From a virus (lineage: Duplodnaviria; Caudoviricetes), in IMG/VR virus record IMGVR_UViG_3300042860_000755, positions 1-59,275 of that record: 59,275 bases of DNA. One strand, written 5' to 3'. Within the stretch, counting starts at the first letter, position 1. The number at the start of each line of letters is the position of its first letter. Shown here in pieces: positions 2,320 through 52,052 of this stretch. The notes below the pieces were generated by a model that did not search any database, was not told the origin of the DNA, and saw nothing but the letters and a program-made list of their open reading frames with translations. The translations under genes and the position numbers were made by a program.

Positions 2320-2523
2320 ATGAGCCAGAATCACGACACCGTCAAGAACGCGCTGGACATTGTTTCGGTGGTTGCAACCATTGGCTCGTTCTTGGAATTG
2401 CTCACGCCGGTATTTGGCCTGATTGGTGCGATCTGGACACTGATGCGCATCGCTGAGATGGTCTCTGGCAAGACGTTTGCGGAGCTGATCCGCCGAAAGA
2501 AAGCAGATGCCGAGCAAGAGTAA
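2320..2523 (+). CDS. Small membrane protein (holin-like)
   Basis: Hydrophobic segments followed by a charged C-terminus. Confidence 0.5.
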   Translation: MSQNHDTVKNALDIVSVVATIGSFLELLTPVFGLIGAIWTLMRIAEMVSGKTFAELIRRKKADAEQE

Positions 2524-2992: not shown

Positions 2993-3004
2993 TTGGAGGC
3001 CGAC

Positions 3005-12200: not shown

Positions 12201-15120
12201 CACGGCCACGGTAAATGCCGTCACTGGAGGCATCAGAACAAAGGCGCTGACGATTGCTGGGCCTTTGACGGGCAACCTGACGCTGGCCGGATCAACTGCA
12301 ATTGTTGGTATTCACGGCAACGTGACGCTGCCCGCAACGGGCCTGACGAGGACGTACACGGGTGACATTACTTTATCTGGATCGGCTACGGGGCGTACAC
12401 TGACAACCAATGGCGTTGTACTGGCATCTAGTGTTGTGCTTAACGGTGTAAATTCTGGCTGGACACTTGGAAGTGCTTTTGATAATACGGCAACCAGTGC
12501 AGATTTTACTGTTACTAACGGAACGTTTAACACTGGAAACTTCAATCTTACAACCAGAATTTTTTCCTCAGACAATTCAAACTCAAGAACAATAACATTT
12601 GGTTCTTCCACTGTTTTATTAAACTTTGCAAGTTCTCCTGCGCTTAATTTTGGCACAACTGAATCAGTTCGTGCTGGATTAACCTTTAACTCAAACACAT
12701 CTCAGATTAATTTTTCTGGAGCAAGCTCTGGCATTTCGGGAAACAACCAAACGTTTTACAACGTAGCCTTTACCAGCACATCCGCAGGCACAGTTACCAT
12801 CAACGGAGCAAACACCTTCAACAACCTGTCGGTCACAGGCATTACCTCTGCTGGCCTGAAGAACGTATCTCTCACAGCCAACCAAACCATCAACGGCACA
12901 CTGACGCTTTCCGCTGGCACTAACGCCACGATGCGGCACTTCGTCCGCTCAGACACCATTGGCACAACCCGCACACTGACCTGCGCTGCTTTCTCAGGAA
13001 CAGATGCAGACTTCCGTGACATCACCATTGCTGGTGCTGCTGCCCCTGTCAGTGGTACTCGTTTGGGTGATTGCAAAGGCAACAGTGGGATTACGTTCCC
13101 TGCGGCTAAGACGGTCTATTGGAACTTTGCCACAACGGCAAGCTGGAGCGGTGTTGTGTGGGCATCGTCAATTGGCGGCACACCAGACAACATTTATTTC
13201 CCTCTTGCCCAAGACACAATTGTGTTTCCCAGTTCTTCACCAAATAGCGGTGTAACTGTGAGTCTTGGCAACTCTTACAACATCGGCACGATTGATATGT
13301 CTGCCCGTACCAGCAACACAATGACGCTGGCAACGAGTACGAATACACCAGCAATCTACGGCAACTGGATCAATGGTACTGGCACAACGCTGACGGGTAC
13401 GGGTGTGATGACCTTTGCAGGGCGTGGCAGCCAAACGATTACAAGTGCTGGCATTACGTTTACGCAACCTTTTACGTTTGACACTCCTGGTGGATCAGTC
13501 ACGCTACAAGACAATTTTTTCCCAGGCAGAAACACAAGCGGTGCGGTCATTCTTACTTCTGGAACATTTAATGCTAATGGGTATAACGTTACTTTTGCTG
13601 GGTCAACTAGCGGGATGCAAAGCTCAGGAACAGCAATAAGGACACTTTCTTTTGGTTCTGGTACATGGACTTTTGCTGGAGCGTCTACGCCATTTACTGC
13701 TGTGTCTACCAACCTCACCGTCACAGGCACAGGCACGATCAGCCTCACCAATGCATCTGCCAAGACGTTTGCTGGCGGCGGCATCTCCTACTCAGGCATC
13801 ACCCTTGACCAAGGCGGAGCTGGTGCATTGACCATCACAGGCAACAACACCTTTGCCAACATCACCAACACCTACAGCGCAACGGGTGCAACGAACATCA
13901 CCATTGGCACGACAACGCAGCGTGTAACGCAATGGACGGCCACAGGGGCGGCAACTCGGGTTCTGACGGTACAGGGCACATCTGCATCCAGCCCCGGCAC
14001 ATTGATCCTGACAGGCGGCACAGACCCCAGCGTCGATTATTTGGCAGTCACTGGGGTACGGGCATACAGTCTTGATACCACATGGTATGCGGGGGCCAAC
14101 TCAACCAACAACGGTTCGCTGGGCTGGTATTTTGAAGCTGGCGTGGTGGCAATTACCGCCACCATTTCTGAGACATCCACTGCAACCGATGCGGTATCTG
14201 CGGTACTCACATACGTTTCAAGCATCAGCGAAACGTCCACAGCAACGGACACTGTAGGCGCACCGGGCAGCACATTTAACCCCAGCCTGTCTGAAGCAGC
14301 CACGGCAACGGACGCTGTCGCAGGCACACTGACCTTGCTGGCGCAGGTGGCTGACGCCCTCACTGGCACAGACACTGTAGCTGCCACGCTTGCAATCAAT
14401 CGTAGCGTTTCTGAAACTGCTACGGCAACGGACGCAACAGCAGGCAGGTTTGCGTTTGCCGGCATTATTCTGGAGTCCGCCACGGCCACAGATGCGACCA
14501 GCACAACTGGCACATTCAATCCCAGCCTTGCAGAAACCAGCACGGCAACCGACTCGGACAGCGCCAGCGGAGTGTTCAATCCCAGCCTGTCTGAAACCGC
14601 CACGGCTACAGACGCGCCCAGCACGGCCAACAACACGTTCAACCCAAGCCTTGCGGAAACGGCTACGGGGACTGACAGCCCGGTTGCCAATCTGAGTGTT
14701 GCTGGCGCTGTTTCCGAAACCGCCACTGCCACGGATACAACTCAATCGGTGGTAATTTTTGTGGGGGCAGTATCTGAAACTGCCACGGCAACTGATCTGA
14801 TCAGCGCCCTGACTAACTTCTTGGGGCAGATTGCAGAGACGGCTACGGCAACGGACATTACGCTGGTGGCCCCGTCAGTGTTTGGCCCGCAGGTTCAAGA
14901 GGCTGTTGCCGCGCTGGACTTGGTGTCTACCTTTGCCACGTTCAATGTTCAGCTTGTGGAGTCCGCCACGGTGCTGGACTCCGTCATTGGGGCATTCCTG
15001 TGGAACCTGATCGACGACAACCAGAACCCCAACTGGGTGGTCATCTCGACCCCGCAGAACCCCGGTTGGTCAGTCATAGATGACAGCCAGAACCCGAACT
15101 GGCAAAATACCGACGCATAA
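9208..15120 (+). CDS. Large repetitive tail fibre / beta-solenoid adhesin (1970 aa)
   Basis: Very Thr/Gly/Ser-rich; three KTVYWN...FPLAQDT modules, two WVGG...SGG.GASVP modules, C-terminal SETATATD repeats. Confidence 0.75.
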   Translation: MAARFWVGGTGTWNSTNTANWSATSGGAGGASVPGAADDVTINTASITVTTDYNVSVISVTINASAATLSLGGTLTCSGAITLTQGTFTTNNFNVTATALSSNNSNTRTINLGSSTVTVTANTAIIFTSTTNMTFNAGTSQINLSGATATINSGGLTFYNVSFTDTTAATRVITGANTFNNLTVSGPASAGVVQLTFDSRQTINGTLSTTGTAGNRRVWFRGATYGIAQTLTINSAPSLTDADFRDIYVIGTAAPISGTRIGDLRGIRGITASTPKTVYWNLAGAQNWSANGWATTSTGTPSTDNFPLAQDTATFTNAGSVTGTITLDAAIPYTGTVDMSGRTSAMTLGGSTAYEVYGNWVLGSGVTQSYSGTLSFSGRNTQTITSAGKTLSSAITVNSYGGTVELADALNIGSNSLAVTNGTFDTKNFNVTAGSLTSTNSNVRTITLGSSTVTLSGSSPVTFTTSTNLTFTAGTSQINMSNSSTFSGGGVSFYNISFTGTGAGVAHQISGTNTFNAITVTAPASAGLTGLLFSANQTINGTLTCAGATAVRRIFLRSDTLGTPRTLTVNSLSATDCDFRDITIAGTAAGSSPTRAGDCGGNTGITFPAAKTVYWNLAGSQNWSATAWCPSSGGTPDINQFPLAQDTAVFDNAGTVGTVTVQTAWNIGTLNMSGRTTACTIDWSNGSPTYYGDVLLGSGVTPGTIGFSTMGKRGTQTITSSGNTWSGAMTIDSATGTVQLADALTLIAARTLTLTSGTFDAVTYNVTTGLFTGAFSTIKTLKMGSGTWTLTGTGNVWNFSGAASFVNFYKGTANIILSDTSSTARNFQGDGLSYNKLTIGGTTGTSTLTIGGNNQFTELASTKTVAHTIALGTTTQTFGAWTVTGTAGNVVTVTGTAALTIAGAAVSGVDYLALGTTTVSATSPGEFYAGANSTATSAAAPLYLTAKPADSTRYWVGGAGNWSDTARWSTSSGGGSGASVPRSHDDVVFDSLSNATAYTATVNAVTGGIRTKALTIAGPLTGNLTLAGSTAIVGIHGNVTLPATGLTRTYTGDITLSGSATGRTLTTNGVVLASSVVLNGVNSGWTLGSAFDNTATSADFTVTNGTFNTGNFNLTTRIFSSDNSNSRTITFGSSTVLLNFASSPALNFGTTESVRAGLTFNSNTSQINFSGASSGISGNNQTFYNVAFTSTSAGTVTINGANTFNNLSVTGITSAGLKNVSLTANQTINGTLTLSAGTNATMRHFVRSDTIGTTRTLTCAAFSGTDADFRDITIAGAAAPVSGTRLGDCKGNSGITFPAAKTVYWNFATTASWSGVVWASSIGGTPDNIYFPLAQDTIVFPSSSPNSGVTVSLGNSYNIGTIDMSARTSNTMTLATSTNTPAIYGNWINGTGTTLTGTGVMTFAGRGSQTITSAGITFTQPFTFDTPGGSVTLQDNFFPGRNTSGAVILTSGTFNANGYNVTFAGSTSGMQSSGTAIRTLSFGSGTWTFAGASTPFTAVSTNLTVTGTGTISLTNASAKTFAGGGISYSGITLDQGGAGALTITGNNTFANITNTYSATGATNITIGTTTQRVTQWTATGAATRVLTVQGTSASSPGTLILTGGTDPSVDYLAVTGVRAYSLDTTWYAGANSTNNGSLGWYFEAGVVAITATISETSTATDAVSAVLTYVSSISETSTATDTVGAPGSTFNPSLSEAATATDAVAGTLTLLAQVADALTGTDTVAATLAINRSVSETATATDATAGRFAFAGIILESATATDATSTTGTFNPSLAETSTATDSDSASGVFNPSLSETATATDAPSTANNTFNPSLAETATGTDSPVANLSVAGAVSETATATDTTQSVVIFVGAVSETATATDLISALTNFLGQIAETATATDITLVAPSVFGPQVQEAVAALDLVSTFATFNVQLVESATVLDSVIGAFLWNLIDDNQNPNWVVISTPQNPGWSVIDDSQNPNWQNTDA
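14160..14985 (+). repeat. Tandem ~19-21-aa (S/A)ET(A/S)TATD coding repeats
   Basis: More than ten degenerate copies, several preceded by FNPSL. Confidence 0.85.
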
Positions 15121-15174: not shown

Positions 15175-17352
15175 ATGCCAACATCATACACATCCCTTCT
15201 CGGTCTGGCTCTTCCGGTTACGGGAGAACTGTCCGGCACTTGGGGCGCTACGGTAAATGACTCCATCACTTCTTTGCTGGACACCGCTGTGGCGGGCACA
15301 ACCAGCATTACGACCGATGCGGATATCACGCTAACGACCACCACGGGCGCGTCCAATCAAGCACGACAAGCGATTATTTTGTGGAACCCTGCGTCGGGCA
15401 CTACGACTCGCAACATTACAGCCCCCGCACAGTCCAAGATTTACACGGTGATCAACGCTTCTGGTGGTACGCAGTCCATCGTGTTCCGTGGCGTAGGCCC
15501 GACAACTGGCGTGACCATCGTTAAAGGCGAGTCCGCTGTTGTTGCATGGAACGGCTCTGACTTCATCAAAGTCAGCAACACCAGCGGCGCAGGAACATTT
15601 ACCGACCTGACTGTTACGGGCAACCTGGGCGTTGGGACGAGTTCGCCTACAGCAAAGCTGGAGGTATTTGGTGGCTACGTTATTTCCGGTACTGCGTCGT
15701 CAGTCAACGGCTCCAAGATTCTTGGCGGGTATTACACATCAGGGCACCTTGCAACATTTGGCGGCGAATTCTCCAGCGGTGGCCCGGTTATTGGTTACGG
15801 AGTTTGGCCGTCTACTTCCGCTTCTGGAGCATTTGTAAGCGCAACCACCATCAATGTGGCTCGCGGTGCGTACACCATAGTTGGTGATCAGCATGTCTGG
15901 AGCGGCGGCGGTGCGCAAACCGTAGCTATTGATAGCGCGGTCACCACTTCTGAACGAATGCGCCTTGACGCCTCCGGCAACCTCGGTCTGGGGGTGACGC
16001 CGAGTGCTTGGAGTTCGGGTTCTGGTAGAGCAATAGAAATTGGCCCGTCGGCCACCGGCTTCTTGTTCAACGACTCAAACAACACAAACCTTGGGTCTAA
16101 CGCATACTTTAACGCTGGCTGGAAATATCAAACATCTTCTGTTGGCGCTTCGCGGTACGCGCAAAGCAGCGGAAGTCACACTTGGTACACCGCAGGTTCC
16201 GGCACAGCAGGCAATGCGATCACCTTCACGCAGGCAATGACACTGGATGCGAGTGGGAATTTGGGGGTTGGTACAACTTCACCTGATACTAGGCTGCATG
16301 TAGATGGGGCCACCAACACCACAATCAGAGTCACATCGACAACAAATGCTGACTTCCGTGGCTTTGGTATCGGAGCGGCGGAGGCTGACACTGCTGAATA
16401 TGCTTCTTTCAAGTTGAATGTGGATACTGGTGAGCTAAGAACCTATGTTGGCCCCAGCACATACGGCGGTTTTCAAACTTTTTACACCAACGGCTCCGAA
16501 CGCGCCCGCATCACGAGCGGGGGGAATTTGCTGGTAGGGACTACTTCGTCTTCATCAACCGCAATAATTACATCAGTAGGAAACGCGGGCGGGTATGCTT
16601 TCTTGTCTGACGGTAGTGACACCAACAACATTCTTCTTTCGTACAACGCATCTGCGGGTGTAAATCAGTTTGCTATTCGCCATAACCTTGGAAACACTGA
16701 AATTGGGGCAATTCGCGCTGATGGGGGTTTGGTTTTCTTAGCGGGCAACACCGAACGCGCCCGCATCGACTCCAGCGGGAATTTGCTGGTGGGGACTACA
16801 AGCCAGCCAACTTTTGCAACATCGCGTGCAGTAGTTTCATACGGAAACGCAGACTACGCCTTTGCAGTAGTAAACAGCAACGCAGTCCCATATGGGATGG
16901 CGATGGGGTACACGGGAGCCGCGCCAAACAGTACAAGCAGCGCATTTTTTTACTGTCAAGATAGCGGCCCTACGCAAAGATTTTCTGTGCGCTCAAACGG
17001 AGGCGTTTATAACTACCAAGCCAACGATGTCAACCTGTCCGACCGCCGCGAGAAGACTAACTTTGCACCTGCCAAGTCTTATCTTGACACCATCTGCGCC
17101 ATCTCGGTTCAGACCTTCAACTACATCGACCAAAACATGGAAGAAGACCCCGGCCTGACGCTGGGCGTGGTGGCGCAGGACGTTCAGGCTGTTGCGCCTG
17201 AGTTGGTCATGGAAAGCAACTGGGGCAGCAAAGATGACCCCAGGATGCGGCTGTCGATCTACCAGACCGACCTGCAATATGCGCTGATGAAGTGCATCCA
17301 AGAACTCAAAGCCGAGGTTGACAGCCTCAAATCTCAACTCAAAGGAGCCTAA
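15175..17352 (+). CDS. Tail fibre with C-terminal intramolecular chaperone (peptidase S74-like)
   Basis: Repeated ER(M/A)R(L/I)..SGNL..G units; SDRREKTN autocleavage motif, GVVAQDV, terminal coiled coil. Confidence 0.85.
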   Translation: MPTSYTSLLGLALPVTGELSGTWGATVNDSITSLLDTAVAGTTSITTDADITLTTTTGASNQARQAIILWNPASGTTTRNITAPAQSKIYTVINASGGTQSIVFRGVGPTTGVTIVKGESAVVAWNGSDFIKVSNTSGAGTFTDLTVTGNLGVGTSSPTAKLEVFGGYVISGTASSVNGSKILGGYYTSGHLATFGGEFSSGGPVIGYGVWPSTSASGAFVSATTINVARGAYTIVGDQHVWSGGGAQTVAIDSAVTTSERMRLDASGNLGLGVTPSAWSSGSGRAIEIGPSATGFLFNDSNNTNLGSNAYFNAGWKYQTSSVGASRYAQSSGSHTWYTAGSGTAGNAITFTQAMTLDASGNLGVGTTSPDTRLHVDGATNTTIRVTSTTNADFRGFGIGAAEADTAEYASFKLNVDTGELRTYVGPSTYGGFQTFYTNGSERARITSGGNLLVGTTSSSSTAIITSVGNAGGYAFLSDGSDTNNILLSYNASAGVNQFAIRHNLGNTEIGAIRADGGLVFLAGNTERARIDSSGNLLVGTTSQPTFATSRAVVSYGNADYAFAVVNSNAVPYGMAMGYTGAAPNSTSSAFFYCQDSGPTQRFSVRSNGGVYNYQANDVNLSDRREKTNFAPAKSYLDTICAISVQTFNYIDQNMEEDPGLTLGVVAQDVQAVAPELVMESNWGSKDDPRMRLSIYQTDLQYALMKCIQELKAEVDSLKSQLKGA

Positions 17353-25086: not shown

Positions 25087-27585
25087 ATGGCTGAAGCAAC
25101 GCAAACCTCAATTTCAGACTTGCCGGAATGGGCCAGAGGTTATGGCCCGCAACTATTGGGGTTGACAGAAGCTGTTGCATTCCAAAAGCAATACAACCCC
25201 GAAACCAAGCAGTACGACATCGTCGGACCCTCGGAGTATCAAAAATATGGCGGGGAGAGGATTGCGCCATTCTCTGGTTTGCAGGAGAAGGCGTTTGAGC
25301 GTGCTGGCGAAATGGGGACTTCGTCGCAGCTTGGTTCGGCAACAACAGATACCCAGACCGCCATAAACAAGGCGCTCGGCACAAGTTATGACCCGTATCA
25401 GATGGGTCAGTTTACTGCGAGTACTGCCGCGCAGTACATGAATCCGTTTGTTGAGGCGGCGATGGCACCCCAGCTTCGGGAAGCCCAACGCTCCTCAGAA
25501 ATGCAGCGCATGTCCGATCAGGCCCAGGCGGTTCGATCTGGTGCATTTGGCGGCAGCCGTCAGGCGATTGTTGAAGCCGAGCGGCAGCGCAATCTGGGGA
25601 TGCAGCAGGGGGACATCCGCGCCCGTGGGTATCAAACTGCTTTTGATCAAGCCCAGCAAAATTTTGCCCGTGAGCAGCAGCTTCGTGAGCAGTCCCGCCA
25701 GTACGGTGCTGGCCTGGGTATGCAGGGCATCGGACTTGGCTTGCAGGGCGCTGGTCTTATGGGTCAGCTTGGTCAGGCACAGTTTGGCCAGGGCAGAGAC
25801 ATTACGAACTTGCAGGCGCAGCTTGGCACCCAGCAGCAGCAGGTTGGACAGCTAGACCTGAACCAGAAGTATCAAGACTTCCTGAACCAGCAGCGGCATC
25901 CGTACCAGCAGTTGGAGTTCATGTCGAACATGTTGCGCGGCACCCCAATGGGCACTGTCAACACAATGTACGCCCAGCCGCCCAGCACATTGGGTCAGAT
26001 TGCTGGCCTTGGCACTGGCTTTCTTGGTTTCGGACAAGCCGCAAGAATGTTTGGCAACAAAGAGGGCGGCCAAGTCAAAGAGTATGCCGATGGCGGCAGT
26101 GTCACCAGCGACTACAACATCGACAACATCATTGACAGGCTCAGTGACGCTCAGTTGCAGCAAGCCCGCATGGCGGCCATCAACAACAAGGATATGCGCC
26201 GCCTTCAGGCCATTGACGAGGAGTTGGCAGAACGAGCATCGGTGCGATCCGGTCTTGGTGGTGCGTTTAACTCGCTGCCGGAAGAAACCCAGGAGTCTGT
26301 CACCAACATGGCCGAGGGTGGCATCGTTGCCTTTGCCGGACCAAACGAAGCCAACAACTACAACCTTGTCGAAGACCCTCAGTTCGGCGGTTCGTCTTCT
26401 GGTTCGGCAGATATGGATCGGCTTCGGATTGAATCTGAACGCGCTCGCCGTGCAGCGCAAGAGCATGAGGCGCGGATGAAATTTTTGAGGGAATCAGCCC
26501 CAGAAACTTATCAGCGACTGCTGACAGAGCAGCCAAATGCGCCTGCTCAGACTGCTCCCGCTCGGGTCGCTCCAGCGCAGGCTCCACGCACCGCCCAGGC
26601 CGCTCCTCAAGCCGCAAGGCGTGATGAGCCTCGCAGATCAGCAACCATCACGAGGCAAGAAGCCAGGAGTGCGGTTGAGACAATTGCTCAGGGAAACAAT
26701 GTTGAAATCCCCAAGGATGACACAAAGGAACTTACTGAACAGTTCATGAAAGAGTTCAGCGCCAAGTCAGCGCCTGAGCGAGCAGAAGTTAAGGCCGACT
26801 TGGAGAAGGCCAAAAGCCGTGCCAAAGAGATTGAGGCTCGGGGCATTGGTGAGGCAATGATGAGGTTTGGCTTTGGTATGGCCGCAGCAGCTTCAAAACC
26901 CGGAGCGGGTACTGGGCTGGGTGGGGCGCTTAGATCAGCAGCGGCAGCCTCTCCAATCTTTGCGGAGTCTCTGGCGGAAACCAATAAGCTCAAGCAAGCG
27001 GCAGAGGACAACTACACCAAGCTGCGCATGGAGAACAGGCGTTATGAGAACGCCCTTGATCAAGGCAACATGCAGCTTGCCTCCAGCTTGGCAAACAACA
27101 TCAACCAGCGCAAGCTTGCCCAGGCAAACCTTGAGCGTCAGATTGTTCAGCAAGACCGCCTGTTTGAGTTGGAAAAGCAAAAGGCAGCTTTTGCACGGTC
27201 GCAGGCTGGACGCCCTGGATCATCCCTGGAGATGGCCTACAACGTCCTTCGTGCTGACCCCAAAAACAAGGACAAGAGCAATTCCGATCTGCTTGAAGAC
27301 GCCGCAAGAAAGGTTGGCTTCGCATCCAACTATCGCACAGATGTTTCAGCGGACATCAGGCGTCAAGACCAGTTGCGCAAAGATTTGGGTGAAAACATGG
27401 AATACAAAAAGTTGGGAGTTCAAATGGCCACCGCAAAAACACCAGAAGAGCGTTTGTCCATCCAGCAAAGAATGAATGTCATTGAGGCAGATGCCGCTAG
27501 GAAAATTGGTATTCAGCCCAGCGGTGGTGTAGGATCGCCCACTCAAGTCTATCGGTTTGACTCAAAAGGCAACCCTATTCAATGA
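25087..27585 (+). CDS. Internal virion / ejection protein
   Basis: Gln/Ala-rich helical protein with YMNPF and GAFGGSR motifs typical of podovirus DNA-transfer proteins. Confidence 0.6.
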   Translation: MAEATQTSISDLPEWARGYGPQLLGLTEAVAFQKQYNPETKQYDIVGPSEYQKYGGERIAPFSGLQEKAFERAGEMGTSSQLGSATTDTQTAINKALGTSYDPYQMGQFTASTAAQYMNPFVEAAMAPQLREAQRSSEMQRMSDQAQAVRSGAFGGSRQAIVEAERQRNLGMQQGDIRARGYQTAFDQAQQNFAREQQLREQSRQYGAGLGMQGIGLGLQGAGLMGQLGQAQFGQGRDITNLQAQLGTQQQQVGQLDLNQKYQDFLNQQRHPYQQLEFMSNMLRGTPMGTVNTMYAQPPSTLGQIAGLGTGFLGFGQAARMFGNKEGGQVKEYADGGSVTSDYNIDNIIDRLSDAQLQQARMAAINNKDMRRLQAIDEELAERASVRSGLGGAFNSLPEETQESVTNMAEGGIVAFAGPNEANNYNLVEDPQFGGSSSGSADMDRLRIESERARRAAQEHEARMKFLRESAPETYQRLLTEQPNAPAQTAPARVAPAQAPRTAQAAPQAARRDEPRRSATITRQEARSAVETIAQGNNVEIPKDDTKELTEQFMKEFSAKSAPERAEVKADLEKAKSRAKEIEARGIGEAMMRFGFGMAAAASKPGAGTGLGGALRSAAAASPIFAESLAETNKLKQAAEDNYTKLRMENRRYENALDQGNMQLASSLANNINQRKLAQANLERQIVQQDRLFELEKQKAAFARSQAGRPGSSLEMAYNVLRADPKNKDKSNSDLLEDAARKVGFASNYRTDVSADIRRQDQLRKDLGENMEYKKLGVQMATAKTPEERLSIQQRMNVIEADAARKIGIQPSGGVGSPTQVYRFDSKGNPIQ

Positions 27586-27592
27586 GGTTTAA

Positions 27593-30500
27593 ATGACGAT
27601 CAGAGCCGAACTTGCCGATGGTCGAGTCCTTGAATTTCCCGATGGAACAGACCCCGGAGTAATTCAGGCGACGGTCAAGCGAATGATTGCCGCCCCCCAG
27701 GGGGCGCAAGATTTTTCTCAGGTGCCAACTGCTGAATTGGAGGCGATGCCAAGTGCGCCGACTTCCATCTCTGACATTGCTCGGTCTCTTGGGATTGGCG
27801 TCGTTGGTGGCGCAAAAGCGTTGACTGATGTTTTTGGCGCTGGCTCTACTGCGTCAGAGTACCTGGGTGAAACCGCAAGAGAGCTTCAAAAGGGTTTGAC
27901 ACCGGCCCGTCAGGCTGAAATTGCCAAACGCCAAGAACTGGAAAAACGAGCCGCCGAATCTGGTGACACGCTCAAAGAAGTCAAAACATTCCTTGGTGGT
28001 GTTGCCGAGGCACCTCTACAGTCGTTGGTTCAAGGTGTTGGCTCTTCTGCGCCAACCTTGCTTGCGTCATTGGCTGCCATCCCTGCGGGAGCGCCAGCGG
28101 GCTTGGCGCTTGGCGTGGGCATTATTTCAAGAGCCGCCCTTGGAGCTGCTCAAGGCGTTGGCGAACAAAAAGGCTCCATCCTTGATGAGGTTGAGCAGGC
28201 TTACATAAAGGCTGGCTACGAAAAAGAGCAGGCCAGGGAGCTTGCCCTTAAGGCTCAGGAGTACTCACAAGACAAGGCCCTTCAATTTGGCGGGGCCGCC
28301 CTTCTTGGCGCGTTGGATGCGTTTACCGGGATGGAGAGCGGCGTTTCAAAAGCCGCCCGCGCCGCAGCCTCCAAGAAAATTGCTGGCGCAACAGCCGACA
28401 AAATTGTTGAAGGATTGCCCGAGAAAGAGCTTGCACGCCCAGGCGTCATTGGTTCCGCTGCACGCTCCGCAATTGGAGAGGCCCCGCTTGAAGGCGTTCA
28501 GGGTGGCTATGGCCAATACTCAACCAACCTAGCCCTCATCAAAGAGGGTTTGCTCGATCCTGATTTGGCCATGCAGGGCGTTTACGGTGCTGCCGCCCGT
28601 GACGCAGCAGTTGGCGCATTGACTGGTGCCGCGTTTACACCTGTTGAACAAGCCAATAGGATGCGCGAATACCAAATGGATCAGGCTCTTCGTCAGCAAC
28701 AAGATGCTGGCCTTGCCGTTTCCGAAGAAGAGCTTGCCCAGCGGTTCCCCGATGTTCTTCCTGGCGGTTTCAAGATCAACCGCGAAGAGCTTGGCACTGA
28801 GACTGTGCCGCAGGGCTTCAGCATCATGGCCGAAGGCAGGGATGAACCCCTGTCTGTGGTTGATACCCAAGATGAGGCCAATGCCAAGCTTGAAGCTCTG
28901 ACCAAAATCAGGGAGCAAGAGCGCGAGAAAATCCTCAAGGACGAAGAAAAGATCAACGCCGATGTCAAGAAGTCCAGAGACAGGCTGGAGTATCTTGAGG
29001 CCACCGAACAGACCGGCACGGACGAGTATCAATCACTGAAGGCTGAACTGCCTAACCTGATGGACGAGTCGGCGCAGAAGATCAAGGACTTGTACGAGCG
29101 GTCTGAGTCGCTGTCCAAGCCCCTTACGGTCATGCCTTTCGGTGAGGCGCAGCGTGTAAACGAGCAGTTCAACGTCCTCGGGCCGGATCAAAAACCAGTC
29201 GGCACGTTTAAAACCATTGGCGAAGCCGAGGCTGTAGTCACTAAGGCCGTTGGTGAAGATGTGTTTAAACAAACACAGCAGAACCGCGAAACCGCTAAGG
29301 AACTCTACAAGACCTTCGTCCCCCAGATGCGCAAGTTCGGTCTGGGTGATGTTGGCCTGAACATCGTTGACCGGATTGAGAATGGTGCTGGCGGGGCATA
29401 CCTGAACAAGCTGATCAAGGTCTCTCTGGAGGAGGCCAACCCCGTCCAAACGATGCGCCATGAGGCTCTTCATGCCATGAAGGACTTGGGCTTCTTCAAG
29501 CCGCAGCAATGGAAGGCGCTTGAGGATCGCGCAAACAAGCAGTGGATCAAAGAACTCAAGGAGGCCAAGTACGACGAAAAGCAGTCGCGCTATGACGCCT
29601 ACGTTGATCTGTTCACCAAAGAGGGTGAGCAGAAGGGTTTGTCGGGCAAAGAGTTGGATCAGTACGTCAACGAGGCGGTGGTTGAAGAAGCGATTGCCGA
29701 TGCCTTTGGTGCTTATGACAAGGGGGCCAAGCCGCCCCCAGGCATGATTGCATCCCTGTACAAGAAGATCAAAGACTTCTTCGCAAGCCTTGGTCAGGCG
29801 TTCCGTGGCGCAGGTTTCCAGTCAGCAGATGACATCTTCCAGAACATTGAGCGCGGTCGTCTCAAGCCTGCGGCAGAGGCAAAGCCTGTAGCTGAAGAAA
29901 AACTCAGTCTTCGTGTCGCAAACAAAGTTGGCAAGCAGCTTGACCTTGCAAAAGAGGAAATTGATTCAACATCAATCAGCTTACAGACTGGTAAAGCTGG
30001 CGTTGACCAGTTTAAAAAGCAGCCGGTCGGCGGCTTGCCTCAAGTTGTTCAGTTCTTGGAAAATCGCAGGAAGGCATCTGGCCTAAAAAATCTGGACATT
30101 ACGAGCGAAGAAGATCGAGAAGAATTGGCAAAGCTGATGGCCGCAGAAGCCATGGCGGCTATTAATGCTGGCGGCAATGCCCTTCAGTGGTATGACAGCG
30201 TCATTGATTCCATGATGAACATGGCGTCTTTGAAGTACCCCGAACTTGCCACAAATGAAGACAACAAAGCCGCACTGCGGATGGCAATTGCTATTGCATC
30301 TCAGGGTTTAAACGTTGAGGACAATTTGACGTTTGCCATGTCGCAATACGATTACTTCAGGCAAAACGGCAGATTCAAAGAAACTGGTTCTGGCGCTGAT
30401 GGCGCGGCAATGAAGTCAAACTTCACTCTTGCCAATCAGATGATTGAGCAATATGGATTGACTGATCTGCGTAAATTCTTACAAACCGAGTTTACCGTTG

Positions 30501-33500
30501 AAGAGCTGCGCGGCGCTGGGTTTGACATTGGTGGTGAACTTGGTGATGAAAAGGTCACAGGTTCCGCCATCTTTGGGCCAAAGATTGGATTTGGTTTCTA
30601 TTCCAATTTGAGCGGCAATTTTGAGCCTGTGACCATGGATATGTGGTTTATGAGAACCGTTGGTCGGTTGACGGGCAAGCTCAAGGGGTTTGACCAGAAA
30701 AAGTTTGATGATCAGTTAAAGCGATTCAGGGAGTCATTTTCCGACAGGGGCGAAGACGGCCTTTACGCTGATGAATTCAAAGACGAAGAGATTCAGAAGG
30801 CGATGGACAGTGTTGAGGGTGCAGTCAATCTGTCTAGAGTGGTTAACAGCGTTTTCAATTCAGACTTCAAGAACAACCGCGAACTGTATGACGAGGGCGC
30901 AAGAAAGAAGACTGATCTGGTCTATGCCGCCCAAAACATCATCAAGTCTTTTGATGCGCCTAAAGATGCCCCTCAGAACGGGACAGAGCGCAGACTATTG
31001 CGTGATGTTGTCGCCAGAACTGTTGACAAGGTTGCCAAAGCATATGGCAAGCGCATCCCGCCAGCATCTCTTCAGGCTTTGATCTGGTATCCAGAGCAAG
31101 AGTTGTACAAAGCTCTTGGTGTTAAGTTGCGCGTTACCAGTCAAGATTATGCTGGTGCGATCAAAAAACTTTTGATGAAGGAAGGCTACAATGAATCAAC
31201 AATTGATGGAGCCGCTAAATCAGGACCAAGAGCAGTACAACCAGTGGCTGGCAAACAAGTCCAAGCCGGAGTTGCGCCAACTGGCAAAAAACCTCAAGCC
31301 GTTTTTGAGCCAACTGAGCGAGAAGAGTTCCTCGAAAAGCGAAAAACAGAGCAAGTCTTAAAGCAGGAGCGTGAGGCTCCGCGCCGCAAGAAGGTTATTT
31401 TTGAGGTTGCTCCAGACCCCAACAACGTTGAGTTGACAGAGCGATGGAATGCTTTGCCTCAGGCAGATCGACTGCGCATTAGCAACAACATCTCAAAGAA
31501 AATCATTGAACAAGCCAAGGCTGACCTTGATTTTGATGGTCGCGTTGTTTCTCAGGTTGGGTCATACCTCAATGACACAAACCCGTCTTTTGCCCTATTT
31601 TTGGAAAAAGGCGATGCCGTAGAGATTTCCAAGTTTTTGGGGTATGCACTGTCGCAAGACAGCATGATGGTTGTGTCGCCCAAACCAGCCCCGGGCATGG
31701 AAAAAGTTGGGGCGGTTGTTGTTGATGTAAGAACTCAATCGCCTTCTGAAGTTGATGCCATTTATCAAAAGTTGCGTGAGATCAGTTTAAACGGTGAACA
31801 GCCGGTGGGCGGTCAGACCACCATGAATAACAAGATGATTGTCTTGAATTATTCAGGTGTTAAGACCGAAGAACTGGCCCAACTGATTGATAAAAAACTT
31901 GGCGGCACGTATGATGTGCAGTACACAGATGTGTATTCCGCCTTCCCCGAGAAAAAGGATTACGACTATGCCAGTCCAGAAAATGACCCCAGAGGAAAAG
32001 GCAAAGCTGTTCGGGAACGGGCTCGTGCTCTCCGGGCAGATGCGACCAAACTCCTTGAAGAAGAACTCGGAACAAAAGCCCAAGCCCCAGCAAGAGAAGA
32101 AAAATTCAGCCTGAAGGCACCCACCAGTCCTGAATTTAAACGGTGGTTTGGTGATAGCAAAATCGTCAACAAAGACGGTACGCCGATGGTCATGTACCAC
32201 GGGCTTGCAAAAGACACCACAGACTTCACCCGCAAGACTGAGCGCGGCGCACCAATCTTCCTGACGGACGACCCTGAGTTTGCTGAACGCTTCGCCGCAG
32301 ACAGCTACGAGAGCGTTGCCCGTAACCCTCAAAAATACCTGTCCAAACAACAGATTGATGGCGGGGTCAAGAGAGCGATTGCCGCAATCCGCAAGGACTA
32401 CGGCAAAGACACCCTTGGCTTGGAGATGATTGAGAGCCTGAAGACGGGCAATCTAAATGATGCAACCCCTGAAGCGCGGGAGTACATCCAGAAAGAATTC
32501 ATTGAACTGCTCCCGACTGGCCCGCACATCATGCCCATGTATGTCAGGGCAGAGCGTCCGTTTGACTACGAGAACCCCAGCCATATTCGCAAGGTCTTGG
32601 CTGAGTTAACTGAAGACGCCTATGACCCCGCAGACATTCGCTCCGGTAGCTGGGAGTCCATTGAGAACGCAGATTTCCAAGACGCCATCCAGAATGCTGG
32701 CTTTGATTCTTTCTACGTCAAAGAGCATGGGCGCAAGAACCTTGCCGTCTATCAGCCCAATCAGGTCAAGTCAGCCACCGGCAACGTTGGCACCTACAGC
32801 CTTGAGTCACCGGATGTGCGGTACAGCCTGCGGGGCGTAGCATTCCCAACCGCCAAAGAGGCTCAGGAAGCCACAGATGCCGTTAAGGTTCCCGACACGC
32901 CTGAGTTTAAACAGTACATCGCCGGAAGCCAGTGGGTTGACGAAGACGGCAAGGCCAAGAAGTTCTTCCATGCCACCACATCCAACTTCTTTGAGTTCAA
33001 TGACGGGGTCATCTACCTGTCTGACACCGCAGAAGAGTCAGCCAAGTGGGGCCGCATGGCAGAGGATCGTCTGCGCGAGAGGATTTACAAGGCCCTGAAC
33101 AAAGACGAGAAGCTGCCGTTCTTCCAGCAGGCGGTCGATCAGGCTGTGTCCAAGGACAAGATTACCAAGGCTCAGGGCGAGAAGTTCATGCGCGATGCAA
33201 CGCGCAATATTCCTGGCTTTGACAGCTACGACCTCATCAAGAAAGAGATGGATGACGTTCTGTTGTCACTGTCTCCTGAGCGGATGAAGATCATGCCGCT
33301 GTACGCCCGCGCCATGACTCCGTTTGACTTCAGGAACAAAGAACATGTCCAACAGGTAATAAATGCCTTTGACTACACGGAGACGATGGACCGCAAGGTT
33401 GGTGAAGTAGCCAAGCAGATAAACAAGCAGATTGGCGGCGCACCAACTGTCAATGTTGAGCACATCCTTGATGGTCTGAAAGGCATCTTGGCGCAGGGTT

Positions 33501-36500
33501 ACCCCAAGGTGGTTGAGCGCCCAGACATCATGCGGACGATTCGCAAGCTTGGCTTTGATGGCTATGTGGTTCGCCGCAACCGCACAGCCCCAATGTCTTA
33601 CGCTGTGTTTAAACCGGAACAGGTTAAGTCCATCACCGGCAACGATGGCCAATTCAGTCTTGAGACCAAGGATGTCCGGTACAGCTTGAGCAGGGTGCGC
33701 TACACGCCCGAGCGGTTTGAAAAGCTGCTCTCTGAGTCCGCTTACAGCAACGACACAACGACCAAGGGCTACATGGCCTTTGTCGATCCGATGGACTTTG
33801 TGAAGGCTACCTCAACACAGCAAGAGTTTGATCGGGTCAAATCAGAGCAAGAGCCTTTGGACTTTGCGAGGATGAGTGGGCTGGCAGATGAGCCCAAGAT
33901 GTTTGTCTCCAAGCGTGGCGATGAATGGAAAATTCTTGATCATGAAGGCCGCCACCGAATGCTTGCCATGCATGATGCTGGCTACAGAAGCGTGCCCGTT
34001 TACATTCAGTTTTATTCTGGAATTGAAGATGCCAAGACCATTCCGGTCAAGGCGATAAACGGGCAAACTGGAGCAATCAATTCAATCGTCATGGTTGCCG
34101 AGGCGGAGCCTCTCTCATACGCCAACAAAGACAGGGCGATGAAGAAGTTCACCGGCATGGACAGCGATGTCAAGTACAGTATGCCGACCTTGTCCAAAGA
34201 CACTGTGGACAGGATTAAGGAAGTCGCTCCGCAAAGGTATCAGCCGGGCTGGAAAGAACGAGTCATTGGTGGGCTTAAACCTGACTACACGGAACTGCGG
34301 CAAAGGTTTTTGAATAGATACGAAACGTTTGCAAATTACGACGAGCGCAATCAAGCAAAGATCAGAGCGGCTGGCGGCCCTGAGCTTTTGGCCGATCAGA
34401 GGGCAGAGTTTGCAGCCCTTCAGTCAGACCTGTCTGCTGGCGTTGCAGCCTCTGCCATGGGCATTGGAGACCGTCAGGGTGGTATTCCCGTCTACCGTAA
34501 CGGCTTCACCACCATTGACACCAGCGTCAAGGGTTTGACCGAGGCTTTGGCTCCACTGGCCAAGTACGACAAGCCAACCAGCACAGAGGACACCGACATT
34601 TATTCCAAGTATCAATTTTGGGCTGGATGGAAGCGTGGCCGCAGGCTGTTGCGCGAGGGCAGGGAGCAGGTTTACACGGCAGCAGATGCAAAGCGAGCCC
34701 AAGAGATTGAGAACAACCACCCCGAGTTCATTCAGGTTCAGAAAGACCTGATCGCGTTTAACAACGGGATCGTGAACTATGCCGTTCAAACAGGAGTCTT
34801 GAGCCGTGAAAGAGCGCAGCTTTACACTCAGTACGCGGATTACATCCCCTTCTACCGCCAGTTGGACTTGGACAAGACCATTGGGCCTAACCCCTTTGGT
34901 GGTATCAGCGGGGTTAAAGGACCAAAAGAACTCAAAGGCGGCGAGTCCCCTCTTGGTGATTTCTTGGAGAACATGGTCCGTAACACCCAGTCCATGATCA
35001 ATGCTGGGATGAAGAACGCAGCAGCCCAACGGGCCACCAAGGTTGCGTTAGAGATAAAAGAGGTGGAACGCCTGCCCGGCAAAGCCGACGGTCTTGGATT
35101 TGATGTTTACACGCAGCTTGAGAATGGCCAACTGGTTTACTACCGCTCATCTGACTCCCTCTTCATTGAGGCCCTGAAGAGCCTGAACATGCCTGATCTG
35201 CCCTTCATGGGGCTGTTGTCTGCGCCAGCCAACGTTCTTCGGAACTTGGTGACCAAAGACCCAGGCTTCATGATGGCCAACCTGTTGCGCGATTCGCTGT
35301 CGTCCTACGTCACCAGCGGTCAAAAGATCACCCCAATCGTTGGGACCATGGTCAACTTCGGCAAGGCTCTGTCTGCAAAGGACAAGAACCTTCAGGCTCT
35401 GTTTAACGCCGGGATCATTGGCGGGTATGAGTTCAGCCAGAACATTGAGCAGTCTGGCCAATCGTTGAGTGACGACCTGAACAAAAAGGCTGGCAAAGAC
35501 GCAATTCTTCTGCGCCCGTTTAAATCGCTGTGGGAAGGGTTGGAGAAAGGCACGACCGCCTCGGACGCCGCGACCCGTATGGCCGTTTACGAGCGCGTGA
35601 TGAAAGAGACCGGCAACGAGGCAGAGGCCATCTCCAGGGCGCTTGAGGTGATGAACTTCAACCGCAAGGGTAACTCTGTCCTGATCCGCATCGCCACCGC
35701 AGCCCTGCCGTTCTTCAACGCCCGCTTGCAGGGTCTTGACCTGTTCTACCGCGCCTCGACGGGGCAGATGAACACTCAAGATGCCAAGGAAATCAAAAAG
35801 CGATTCTGGATTCGCGGCATGACCATGTCCGCACTGTCAGTCATGTACTACCTGTCAGTGGCCGATGATGAAGAATACGAAAAGCAGGAAGAGGAAACCA
35901 AAGACAACAACTGGATTTTCCCCATCTTTGGCATTCGCATTCCAATCCCGTTTGAGGTCGGAACACTGTTCAAGACCATGCCCGAGCGGATCACGGCCTA
36001 CCTGATGGGCAATGACACGGGCAAAGAGCTTGGTCAATCCACCCTCAGAGCCTTGGCCAACACATTCGCCCTCAACCCGATTCCTCAGACGTTTAAACCA
36101 ATCATTGAGGCGGCCACCAACTACAACTTCTTCACCATGCGGCCCATCGTTGGTCAGGGTATGCAAGAGGTTGAGGCCAGATTCCAAGTTGGTCCGGGTA
36201 CGTCAAAGTCGGCAGAGTACATCGGTGGCATCCTCAACCTGTCCCCACTTAAAGTGGATCAGGTCATCAAAGGCTACACCGGAACGATTGGCGGGTACGT
36301 CACTGACGTTGTTGACTCCATCACCAGCCAGTTCTCTGATGTGCCCAAGGCATCGCTGCGGTTCGAGCAGTTGCCCGTGGTTAAACGGTTTGTCTCTGAC
36401 CCCGAAGCCCGTGGGTCCGTCACGCAGTTCTATGAGTTGCAGCGTTCAGTGGATACCGTGGTCCGAACCATGAGTCTGCTGGAGAAGACCGCAAGGCCAG

Positions 36501-36730
36501 AAGAGTTCGCCAAGTACCTTGAAGACAACATCGGACTCCTCGCGGTCAAAGACTACGTCCGAGAAATCGAGAAGAGCATGAAAGAGCTTCGGGAAATGCG
36601 GCGAACGATCAACTCCTCACCCATGGAGCCAGATGAAAAGCGCGACATCCTGATTGATCTGGGCAGGATGGAGAACAACCTGACCGCCAACATCGGACAG
36701 GTCAAGAAGGCGATCAGCGAACTGAAATGA
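27593..36730 (+). CDS. Giant polyvalent protein (HExxH peptidase, glycosylase-like, two ART-like, ParB-like, LPD38-like domains)
   Basis: RHEALH; FGPKIG...VTMDMW...QALIW; FKRWFGDSKIV..DG.P...YHG and a second copy; EGRHR; PFFNARLQG and RIPIPFEVG. Confidence 0.75.
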   Translation: MTIRAELADGRVLEFPDGTDPGVIQATVKRMIAAPQGAQDFSQVPTAELEAMPSAPTSISDIARSLGIGVVGGAKALTDVFGAGSTASEYLGETARELQKGLTPARQAEIAKRQELEKRAAESGDTLKEVKTFLGGVAEAPLQSLVQGVGSSAPTLLASLAAIPAGAPAGLALGVGIISRAALGAAQGVGEQKGSILDEVEQAYIKAGYEKEQARELALKAQEYSQDKALQFGGAALLGALDAFTGMESGVSKAARAAASKKIAGATADKIVEGLPEKELARPGVIGSAARSAIGEAPLEGVQGGYGQYSTNLALIKEGLLDPDLAMQGVYGAAARDAAVGALTGAAFTPVEQANRMREYQMDQALRQQQDAGLAVSEEELAQRFPDVLPGGFKINREELGTETVPQGFSIMAEGRDEPLSVVDTQDEANAKLEALTKIREQEREKILKDEEKINADVKKSRDRLEYLEATEQTGTDEYQSLKAELPNLMDESAQKIKDLYERSESLSKPLTVMPFGEAQRVNEQFNVLGPDQKPVGTFKTIGEAEAVVTKAVGEDVFKQTQQNRETAKELYKTFVPQMRKFGLGDVGLNIVDRIENGAGGAYLNKLIKVSLEEANPVQTMRHEALHAMKDLGFFKPQQWKALEDRANKQWIKELKEAKYDEKQSRYDAYVDLFTKEGEQKGLSGKELDQYVNEAVVEEAIADAFGAYDKGAKPPPGMIASLYKKIKDFFASLGQAFRGAGFQSADDIFQNIERGRLKPAAEAKPVAEEKLSLRVANKVGKQLDLAKEEIDSTSISLQTGKAGVDQFKKQPVGGLPQVVQFLENRRKASGLKNLDITSEEDREELAKLMAAEAMAAINAGGNALQWYDSVIDSMMNMASLKYPELATNEDNKAALRMAIAIASQGLNVEDNLTFAMSQYDYFRQNGRFKETGSGADGAAMKSNFTLANQMIEQYGLTDLRKFLQTEFTVEELRGAGFDIGGELGDEKVTGSAIFGPKIGFGFYSNLSGNFEPVTMDMWFMRTVGRLTGKLKGFDQKKFDDQLKRFRESFSDRGEDGLYADEFKDEEIQKAMDSVEGAVNLSRVVNSVFNSDFKNNRELYDEGARKKTDLVYAAQNIIKSFDAPKDAPQNGTERRLLRDVVARTVDKVAKAYGKRIPPASLQALIWYPEQELYKALGVKLRVTSQDYAGAIKKLLMKEGYNESTIDGAAKSGPRAVQPVAGKQVQAGVAPTGKKPQAVFEPTEREEFLEKRKTEQVLKQEREAPRRKKVIFEVAPDPNNVELTERWNALPQADRLRISNNISKKIIEQAKADLDFDGRVVSQVGSYLNDTNPSFALFLEKGDAVEISKFLGYALSQDSMMVVSPKPAPGMEKVGAVVVDVRTQSPSEVDAIYQKLREISLNGEQPVGGQTTMNNKMIVLNYSGVKTEELAQLIDKKLGGTYDVQYTDVYSAFPEKKDYDYASPENDPRGKGKAVRERARALRADATKLLEEELGTKAQAPAREEKFSLKAPTSPEFKRWFGDSKIVNKDGTPMVMYHGLAKDTTDFTRKTERGAPIFLTDDPEFAERFAADSYESVARNPQKYLSKQQIDGGVKRAIAAIRKDYGKDTLGLEMIESLKTGNLNDATPEAREYIQKEFIELLPTGPHIMPMYVRAERPFDYENPSHIRKVLAELTEDAYDPADIRSGSWESIENADFQDAIQNAGFDSFYVKEHGRKNLAVYQPNQVKSATGNVGTYSLESPDVRYSLRGVAFPTAKEAQEATDAVKVPDTPEFKQYIAGSQWVDEDGKAKKFFHATTSNFFEFNDGVIYLSDTAEESAKWGRMAEDRLRERIYKALNKDEKLPFFQQAVDQAVSKDKITKAQGEKFMRDATRNIPGFDSYDLIKKEMDDVLLSLSPERMKIMPLYARAMTPFDFRNKEHVQQVINAFDYTETMDRKVGEVAKQINKQIGGAPTVNVEHILDGLKGILAQGYPKVVERPDIMRTIRKLGFDGYVVRRNRTAPMSYAVFKPEQVKSITGNDGQFSLETKDVRYSLSRVRYTPERFEKLLSESAYSNDTTTKGYMAFVDPMDFVKATSTQQEFDRVKSEQEPLDFARMSGLADEPKMFVSKRGDEWKILDHEGRHRMLAMHDAGYRSVPVYIQFYSGIEDAKTIPVKAINGQTGAINSIVMVAEAEPLSYANKDRAMKKFTGMDSDVKYSMPTLSKDTVDRIKEVAPQRYQPGWKERVIGGLKPDYTELRQRFLNRYETFANYDERNQAKIRAAGGPELLADQRAEFAALQSDLSAGVAASAMGIGDRQGGIPVYRNGFTTIDTSVKGLTEALAPLAKYDKPTSTEDTDIYSKYQFWAGWKRGRRLLREGREQVYTAADAKRAQEIENNHPEFIQVQKDLIAFNNGIVNYAVQTGVLSRERAQLYTQYADYIPFYRQLDLDKTIGPNPFGGISGVKGPKELKGGESPLGDFLENMVRNTQSMINAGMKNAAAQRATKVALEIKEVERLPGKADGLGFDVYTQLENGQLVYYRSSDSLFIEALKSLNMPDLPFMGLLSAPANVLRNLVTKDPGFMMANLLRDSLSSYVTSGQKITPIVGTMVNFGKALSAKDKNLQALFNAGIIGGYEFSQNIEQSGQSLSDDLNKKAGKDAILLRPFKSLWEGLEKGTTASDAATRMAVYERVMKETGNEAEAISRALEVMNFNRKGNSVLIRIATAALPFFNARLQGLDLFYRASTGQMNTQDAKEIKKRFWIRGMTMSALSVMYYLSVADDEEYEKQEEETKDNNWIFPIFGIRIPIPFEVGTLFKTMPERITAYLMGNDTGKELGQSTLRALANTFALNPIPQTFKPIIEAATNYNFFTMRPIVGQGMQEVEARFQVGPGTSKSAEYIGGILNLSPLKVDQVIKGYTGTIGGYVTDVVDSITSQFSDVPKASLRFEQLPVVKRFVSDPEARGSVTQFYELQRSVDTVVRTMSLLEKTARPEEFAKYLEDNIGLLAVKDYVREIEKSMKELREMRRTINSSPMEPDEKRDILIDLGRMENNLTANIGQVKKAISELK

Positions 36731-48784: not shown

Positions 48785-49018
48785 TTAAACGCGCCGCGCA
48801 TAGTTGACTGCGCTGCGCAGGTTGTTGAATGTATTGGCCCTCAGTGGGCCGTCTGTCGTCTTGATGTAGACCGAGAATGCCAGCCCATCAAAGGCGATGT
48901 ATCGCTCCCCGTGGCCCAGGTATCGCTCATCATCGACTAGGTCAACGATGCCGTCGAGGGCGTATGCTTGTTTTAAAAACACGGGGTGCCGGTTTGTCAC
49001 TGCTCTGATGGTTCTCAT
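48785..49018 (-). CDS. Hypothetical protein
   Basis: ATGA-coupled to the vWA gene. Confidence 0.55.
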   Translation of the reverse strand: MRTIRAVTNRHPVFLKQAYALDGIVDLVDDERYLGHGERYIAFDGLAFSVYIKTTDGPLRANTFNNLRSAVNYARRV

Positions 49019-50589: not shown

Positions 50590-50597
50590 GATTTACC

Positions 50598-52034: not shown

Positions 52035-52052
52035 GATTCACTTTCGGTTGGG

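Follow-up and report, generated by a model that had tools for sequence, protein, structure and literature searches.

A conserved eight-residue peptide delimits exchangeable cassettes in a giant phage polyvalent protein and is a candidate processing site

Polyvalent proteins are thought to be the main phage and plasmid route for the delivery of ready-made counter-defence enzymes. In the main text of Iyer et al. 2017 (PMC5512222), metallopeptidase (MPTase) domains are proposed to process polyvalent proteins into functional units, and LPD38 is listed as phage-specific; the idea of processing is already in print there, whereas a defined junction peptide is absent from that main text, which, supplements aside, gives no cleavage or junction motif, uses 'linker' and 'boundar' 0 times, and has 'cleavage site' in a reference title only. 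Literature searches on polyvalent proteins, LPD38, and ejection proteins found no described junction motif either. Giants with a C-terminal LPD38 have been found in virions, namely phi24B gp47 (2,811 amino acids (aa); bioRxiv 10.64898/2026.04.10.717836) and JC1 gp69 (4,515 aa; Bcep22 gp75-type, 'DarB-like'; PMC9144972), and the accessible parts of these two papers report no processing of the giant. The subject of the present analysis is a giant gene in IMG/VR virus record IMGVR_UViG_3300042860_000755, a phage genome of 59,275 bases (Caudoviricetes) that was analyzed over its whole length, hereafter called the window. Its product joins several unrelated domains in one chain (two ART-PolyVal, LPD38, an HExxH domain, and two further cassettes), and the two ART-PolyVal domains and LPD38 place it among the phage-type polyvalent proteins described by Iyer et al. 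2017, with which it shares the combination of ART-PolyVal, LPD38, and an HExxH domain. Like it, phi24B gp47 and JC1 gp69/Bcep22 gp75 carry LPD38 at the C-terminus; each of these is encoded by the largest late gene of a podovirus, was detected in purified virions, and is proposed to act in ejection or anti-restriction, and they differ from the window protein in their payload (LPD1, LPD5, and MuF_C; or lytic transglycosylase, methylase, helicase, and LPD3). Gene position, together with the virion proteomics of the LPD38 giants of phi24B and JC1, indicates that the protein is probably packed in the head and delivered with the DNA.

Between its modules, the protein repeats a short peptide (hereafter, the tag) five times. 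A sequence-only reading of this DNA had listed the five peptides, with an HExxH motif upstream of the first, and they do sit where it placed them, in one open reading frame (ORF) and with HEALH ahead of the first tag. The parts of the protein are the following.

27593-36730, + strand: giant ORF, polyvalent protein of 3,045 aa, ~335 kDa; this single ORF holds all five tags and HEALH
27593-29893, + strand: constant N module ('module 2'), aa 1-767, from module clustering of relatives
29279-29884, + strand: HExxH domain, aa 563-764, candidate zincin-like peptidase, with no Pfam model
29459-29473, + strand: HEALH (H623, E624, H627; RHEALH from aa 622, nucleotide 29456), invariant in alignments
29684-29701, + strand: EEAIAD (E698, E699 ... 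D703), candidate helix of the third metal ligand, from conservation
29894-29914, + strand: tag 1, EEKLSLR, aa 768-774; the alignment with relative P0007 ends at aa 773
29915-32095, + strand: cassette of unknown function ('module 18'), aa 775-1501, 8 copies in the family
32096-32116, + strand: tag 2, EEKFSLK, aa 1502-1508; 120 alignment starts in aa 1500-1509
32117-32812, + strand: ART-PolyVal cassette 1, aa 1509-1740 (PF18760, 71.4 bits, cut-off 31.2)
32813-32833, + strand: tag 3, DVRYSLR, aa 1741-1747; S and L invariant in 34/34 rows
32834-33670, + strand: ART-PolyVal cassette 2, aa 1748-2026 (PF18760, 42.7 bits, cut-off 31.2)
33671-33691, + strand: tag 4, DVRYSLS, aa 2027-2033; 71 alignment ends in aa 2030-2039
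33692-34165, + strand: small cassette ('module 3'), aa 2034-2191, with HEGRHR, possibly ParB/Srx-like (weak Foldseek rows)
34166-34186, + strand: tag 5, DVKYSMP, aa 2192-2198; S and P invariant in 34/34 rows
34187-36727, + strand: constant C module, aa 2199-3045, with LPD38 inside
35867-36379, + strand: LPD38, aa 2759-2929 (PF18857, 126 bits against a cut-off of 27; profile positions 1-188 of 189)

Comparison with relatives strongly supports the tag as a residue-precise delimiter of cassettes that are swapped and re-ordered from one relative to another, kept by selection at the protein level. The search for relatives with aa 1480-2250 returned 1,379 proteins of 1,674-5,329 aa, from which 120 were kept for analysis; one of them (P0002) is identical to the window protein and was excluded from later counts. 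When the remaining 119 are aligned with the window protein, the alignments break at aa ~770, ~1502, ~1745, ~2032, and ~2190. The number of relatives covering the protein is 115 before aa ~770 and 72 beyond it, 32 before ~1502 and 119 beyond it, 119 up to ~2030 and 54 thereafter, and 72 before ~2190 and 104 beyond it; the high coverage of aa 1480-2250 follows by construction from a homology-selected set, whereas the sharpness of the steps does not. When the 120 proteins were compared all against all, 45,746 of the 103,119 internal alignment ends, which come from related sequences and are not independent events, fell within 12 aa of the loose core [KR][FYLM]S[LMIV], against 5,089 expected (9.0 times), and 28,832 fell near the strict pattern [DE]x[KR][FYL]S[LM], against 2,456 expected. 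Alignment starts peak on the K/R of the core (7,533; next position, 2,081) and alignment ends on its Leu (7,332; next position, 2,613), so that the breakpoints of domain gain and loss in homologs, sought at the linkers, lie on these residues. Two relatives exemplify the pattern: P0007 matches aa 1-773 and 1504-3045 with different cassettes between, and P0021 matches aa 1493-2032 and 2185-3045.

The same borders emerge when the relatives are taken apart. Cutting the 120 proteins at the core yields 798 pieces, which group into 65 module families. The N module (~750 aa) is nearly always first (first segment in 70/120 proteins, with at most one type of left neighbor) and the C module (~850 aa) nearly always last (in 103 segments), and between them lie shuffled cassettes of 100-1,000 aa. 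The set contains 92 architectures, with 133 distinct neighbor pairs in 678 joints, and the ART cassette alone has 20 kinds of left neighbor and 18 kinds of right neighbor. Module order also changes (2-23-7-0-0-3-1 versus 2-0-23-7-0-3-1, and modules 5 and 8 in both orders), which implies rearrangement beyond mere loss. Natural splits of the gene at the tag were also considered; the short relatives are mostly contig-end fragments or frameshifted, and hence uninformative.

The conservation of the tag is that of a peptide. The strict pattern occurs 5 times in the giant protein, whereas over 5,000 shuffles of the protein it averages 0.05 occurrences and never exceeds 2; the loose core also occurs 5 times there, versus 0.89 expected from composition, and 3 times in the other 32 window ORFs combined, versus 2.71 expected. 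One tag-like peptide, EERLSIQ, in the upstream 832-aa ejection protein (aa 787-793, 27451-27471; 43 aa before the C-terminus), is probably due to chance, the closest relative (L001) having EERAGFQ. In 23 distinct copies of D[IVM]R[YF]S (21 from the loci and 2 from the window), all six Arg codons are used and Ser is encoded by both AGY and TCN; codons thus vary freely, which indicates that the peptide and not the nucleotide identity is under selection, and rules out a DNA-level recombination site at the joints. A logo from 519 distinct contexts, reduced to 212 by a 60% identity filter, reads [P/K/G]-[D/E]-[E/I/V]-[K/R]-[Y/L/F]-S-L-[R/K/P/A], eight residues in all, with 3.4-4.3 bits per position in the core, 0.8-1.8 in the outer motif positions (-3 to -1 and +4), and <1 in the farther flanks, which are mildly rich in P, A, E, K, G, S, T, and Q (0.65 upstream versus 0.54 overall). 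At the first joint, the loose core is missing in 26 of the 90 relatives bearing the anchor sequence, and most of these 26 have variants of the EEKRSLK, ERASLK, EKQSLK, AKSSLK, EEKISLK, or EKKSLG type; the regular expression thus undercounts, and the constant part is better described as basic-x-S-L-basic/Pro. A strictly hydrophobic residue ahead of Ser is correspondingly weakened as a feature of the tag, with R, K, Q, A, S, or I found there at this joint, and one subclade has Q or A at the Ser position itself (RYQL or RYAL). Seven residues ahead of each ART-linked tag stands a half-tag, TYSLE (32792-32806) and QFSLE (33650-33664), and the ART cassettes end in ...GN-x-G-x-[YF]-S-L-E-x-x-D-V-R-Y-S-L, with a doubled aromatic-Ser-Leu.

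The tags had been described as falling between apparent domains, and both Pfam and structure prediction agree with this placement. Pfam locates ART-PolyVal within aa 1502-1740 and again within 1741-2026, both above the gathering cut-off, and LPD38 in the C module. The AlphaFold2 model of aa 1480-2250 (34-row alignment; mean predicted local distance difference test (pLDDT) score 73.5) consists of confident domains parted by coil. Its four tags (model residues 23-29, 262-268, 548-554, and 713-719) have no predicted secondary structure, the ten-residue blocks at these tags have pLDDT 31-57, and values <50 are found at model residues 1-29, 265-267, 552-555, and 710-722; in a second model, of aa 540-800, everything from aa 762, tag 1 included, has pLDDT <50. 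On these predictions, the linkers lie outside the folded domains.

The sequence-only reading had proposed that the peptidase cuts these linkers to release effectors, or that they are cassette-exchange joints. The second part stands, since homology breaks exactly at the tag and cassettes are gained, lost, swapped, and re-ordered there; the first is consistent with everything seen and stays a proposal. Our preferred, although tentative, explanation, which we would put at somewhat less than an even chance, is that the tag is a processing site read by the HExxH domain of the same chain, whereby the effectors are freed. The constant N module ending in the HExxH domain (~750 aa) and the constant C module with LPD38 (~850 aa) form a chassis, and the payload consists of variable effector cassettes, here the unknown 727-aa cassette, the two ART-PolyVal, and the small ParB-like one. 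Each joint carries an eight-residue peptide, approximately [P/K/G]-[D/E]-x-[K/R]-x-S-L-[R/K/P], in a flexible linker. After ejection or within the head, the protein's own HExxH domain would read the tag as a processing site and the chain would be cut into separate effectors, the first cut falling just behind the peptidase itself; the freed effectors would leave the chassis behind, presumably at the ejection conduit. Recombinants would survive only if they keep a tag at each joint, and it is proposed that the breakpoints fall exactly on the tag for this reason. Favoring cleavage are the invariant HExxH...EE, the accessible coil, the eight-residue footprint, and the co-occurrence of tag and domain.

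The HExxH domain is widespread in giants of this kind. A phmmer search with aa 560-767 against 1.84 billion cluster representatives gave 1,371 matches at E ≤ 1e-3 and 502 at E ≤ 1e-10, nearly all of the 1,371 lying within proteins of 2,000-4,500 aa. In an alignment of 150 rows (50%-identity representatives plus the window, from 267, rows with <140 match columns having been removed), H623, E624, H627, E698, E699, and L643 are 100% conserved, W640, A647, W651, F635, and F705 98-99%, and D703 70%; in a smaller alignment, HEALH is invariant in 45/45 rows. The model of aa 540-800 (45 rows, 50-86% identity) is an all-helical bundle with pLDDT 79.5, in which aa 617-631, with HExxH, are helical and E698/E699, 71 aa downstream of HExxH, lie in a predicted helix. 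We take the succession of HExxH, 71 residues, and EExxAD to resemble that of gluzincins such as M48 (HExxH...ExxAD). Its neighbors in the ESM Atlas carry LPD23 (score 0.96, 18-20% of members), LPD1/LPD5 (0.90), and MuF_C (0.84), and the top BFVD rows for the model are pieces of other uncharacterized phage polyvalent proteins. One protein of 4,460 aa (P0128) has four copies of the domain, a long helix-turn-helix array (40 Pfam families), and no tag, and may use the HExxH domain differently.

The tag also tracks this domain. Diverse carriers, 145 in number, contain 332 loose cores versus 91.4 expected (3.6 times), and of the 122 carriers of at least 1,500 aa, 84 have at least two tags and 63 at least three. 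A further set comprised 80 distinct giant ORFs (at least 1,300 aa) from 80 loci selected for ART homology; here 39 tags occur in the 13 ORFs that have the domain, versus 9.4 expected (4.1 times), and 47 in the 67 that lack it, versus 42.0 expected (1.1 times). The domain is followed by a tag no more than 30 aa away in 38/147 cases versus 4% by chance, and no more than 60 aa away in 51/147, three domains <80 aa from the C-end having been left out.

Several results nevertheless weigh against processing by this domain. The co-occurrence contrasts themselves are confounded by shared ancestry and some near-duplicate loci (L012, L013), and 17 of the 122 giant carriers have no tag at all. The peptidase assignment lacks a counterpart among known families: Pfam gave no family at E ≤ 5 over aa 1-767 and none over the HExxH domain of 28 diverse carriers, and, unlike the MPTases of Iyer et al. 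2017 (PMC5512222), the window domain matches none of the derived Pfam models. Likewise, phmmer of the domain against PDB found nothing, hhalign of the domain family was not significant (MuF_C 0.2% and an M78-like stretch 5.9% probability), and no zincin fold was found by Foldseek in PDB (best E=0.049, colicin A), by a wide VIA-align search (best Z 6.1), or in BFVD; a deeper alignment might give a different fold, both structure models having been built from rows of 50-86% identity. In the aa 540-800 model, the HExxH domain and the tag of the same chain show no docking. Tags also occur where the domain does not. An ART-bearing giant of 2,928 aa in locus L020 (5903-14686) has five tag-like copies (xxRFS[IV], e.g., xPRFS[IV] and DIRFSV), with no HExxH in its ORF and no domain match in the 18-kb locus, and PDIR[FY]S follows ART-PolyVal in distant domain-less giants (L018, L019, L028, L048, L052, L058, L062, and L076) as well as in shorter complete proteins, some with MuF_C (e.g., 484 aa, on a 79-kb contig). 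Finally, no report of cleavage of this giant or its relatives was found in the accessible parts of the literature on polyvalent proteins and LPD38 virion giants.

Among the alternatives, the best supported, though still unlikely, is that the tag is an uncut motif, either for docking (to the inside of the capsid or the portal in packaging, or to the ejection channel or a chaperone in threading) or for modification at its Ser or basic residues, and that the payload acts tethered. Protein-level selection and accessibility fit this explanation equally well, and the undocked tag, the unconfirmed peptidase assignment, and the ART-linked tags of domain-less proteins are all in its favor, as is the uncut delivery of N4 vRNAP, ArdC, and TraC1 with MPTase domains described in the main text of Iyer et al. 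(PMC5512222). It has, however, no known partner to offer; the tag is missing from the other virion proteins of the window, the lone copy in the upstream ejection protein not being conserved in the closest relative, and an uncut motif gives no account of an enrichment confined to proteins with the HExxH domain or of the tag right behind that domain.

Cleavage by some other protease, be it a phage prohead or maturation protease, the SprT-like protein at 52053-52628, or a host protease, is improbable. Part of the head module is unseen: the contig starts inside the capsid gene (1-846) and ends inside the portal gene (58334-59275), and in the relative L082 these two genes are separated by ~4.5 kb that hold four ORFs, of which one has a GroES-like C-terminus; the window assembly is therefore incomplete, and a portal-capsid stretch of that size is missing from it. 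A second metallopeptidase is possible at 52053-52628, where the SprT-like zincin match is weak (E=1.9e-4, under the cut-off), and the L020 tags without an HExxH domain would also suit another protease. Against this, neither Pfam nor PHROGs gives a protease family for the four L082 ORFs of that interval, and the tag tracks the in-cis HExxH domain.

There is similarly little to recommend a tag without function, left behind by cassette copying or simply the ordinary C-terminal tail of ART-PolyVal, spread by duplication. PDIR[FY]S is joined to ART-PolyVal far beyond the family of the giant, 2 of the 5 window tags follow ART cassettes, and stand-alone ARTs (411-480 aa) end in a related tail, GTFDPKDPR[FI]xYG plus ~17 residues; together with the ART-linked tags that occur without the HExxH domain, these tails suggest that the ART-linked copies may stem from the tail of the ART cassette. 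The core, however, also comes after many unrelated modules, the N module, module 18, and the ParB-like cassette among them (133 neighbor pairs), and it holds its 3.4-4.3 bits while flanks and codons drift, whereas a neutral remnant should erode as fast as the linker around it. Least probable by far is peptidase-free self-cleavage at the Ser by an N-to-O acyl shift, as in the autoproteolysis of SEA, GPS, and Nup98, for although Ser is the most conserved tag residue (in 212/212 contexts by construction, and invariant in the aligned relatives at three joints), that reaction needs a strained folded context at the scissile bond, and the tag sits in coil, its flanks unconserved and the modules on its two sides unrelated, and has its Ser replaced by Q or A in the RYQL/RYAL subclade.

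If processing by the in-cis HExxH domain is retained as the preferred explanation, two candidate positions for the cut suggest themselves. Zincins usually cut before a hydrophobic P1' residue, as established for thermolysin-like enzymes, and, should this preference hold here, the candidate scissile bonds would lie before the invariant Leu or before the F/Y/L of the tag. In the bacterial N-end rule (ClpS/ClpAP), N-terminal L, F, and Y are primary destabilizing residues; a cut at either place would therefore leave the released effectors starting with an N-degron residue, L, F, or Y. It is conceivable, though a long shot, that the tag is a cleavage code read by an HExxH peptidase family for which no model exists, and that the effectors are freed together and then degraded by the host, a built-in timer for early counter-defence.

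As for the cassettes themselves, the unknown one (aa 775-1501) gives weak Pfam rows only (LPD7, E=0.19), and the small one (aa 2034-2191) has no Pfam match. The small (165-aa) cassette contains a second HExxH, HEGRH (aa 2117-2121, 33941-33955), which had gone unmentioned earlier; with the R that follows, we take it to resemble the basic His-Arg motif of ParB/Srx proteins rather than a zincin. Weak Foldseek rows to ParB, SbnI, and a serine kinase are found for this cassette, with no firmer support for the ParB/Srx likeness, and in relatives it is swapped for other cassettes or missing. Foldseek with the aa 1480-2250 model as a whole gave no row at E ≤ 1e-3, its weak rows being to PARP, MbcT, NatT, ParB, and SbnI, and to a pre-ejectosome chain of cyanophage A4 (E=0.059). 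When solved structures were searched by sequence, no meaningful match emerged for the N part, the HExxH domain, the cassettes, or the C module.

The window carries genes for terminase, portal, capsid, adaptor, tail fibre, lysozyme, and ejection protein, and its large terminase is nearest to those of the Pelagibacter phages HTVC027P and HTVC023P and one uncultured phage (50-59% identity). In Pfam and PHROGs, the genes 5' of the giant gene encode capsid, SU10-type adaptors, tail fibre, lysozyme, virion structural proteins, and a DNA ejection protein, so that the giant gene is the last of the virion/ejection block; 3' of it, on the opposite strand, lie recombination and replication genes. Megablast of the giant gene against phage records gave no match, and in tblastn against phage records the cassettes match 6 records and the N module 1, with no cultured close relative that has proteomics; relatives of the C module were found by tblastn in 51 phage records (Vibrio, Escherichia, Planktothrix, Bacillus, and Pelagibacter phages). 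Between the adaptor genes and the tail fibre, an ORF of 1,970 aa (9208-15120, + strand) encodes another giant late protein, which has no Pfam or PHROGs match. The tail fibre (15175-17352, + strand) ends in a Peptidase_S74 intramolecular chaperone, its own self-cleaving module, unrelated to the tag. Three neighboring early genes (49015-52628, - strand) encode a VWA protein (CobT-like), an AAA_5 ATPase, and the weakly SprT-like protein, a MoxR/VWA-type trio.

The 2017 proposal of peptidase processing had no defined cut sites. In the present family, conserved peptides of eight residues can be put forward as exact candidates for such sites, along with a single candidate catalytic glutamate (E624) and >1,000 natural variants with cassettes exchanged at the candidate sites. 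Were the tag cut, cassette borders could be read by rule in giant phage proteins that lack annotation, of which there are thousands, and nature would offer a scheme for filling phage heads with cargo of choice; were it uncut, the recurrence of a linear motif in an ejected chain would hint at an unknown packaging or threading step.

Two further kinds of multidomain protein offer a comparison. The polyproteins processed by picornavirus 3C and potyvirus NIa have protease-coded cleavage sites, and the giant resembles them in having a short consensus at every junction, flexible linkers, and a candidate protease domain in the same chain; it differs from them in that cleavage is putative, shuffled accessory effectors take the place of a fixed replication set, the host is bacterial, and the protein is delivered pre-made. 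Polymorphic toxins have demarcation motifs, VENN in CdiA and PxxxxDPxGL in Rhs, the latter reportedly with autocleavage. As in CdiA and Rhs, a short conserved peptide forms the border between a constant delivery part and exchangeable cassettes, and breakpoints pile up there; CdiA and Rhs, however, carry one C-terminal cassette, whereas the window giant carries several internal cassettes, each with a tag, between two constant ends.

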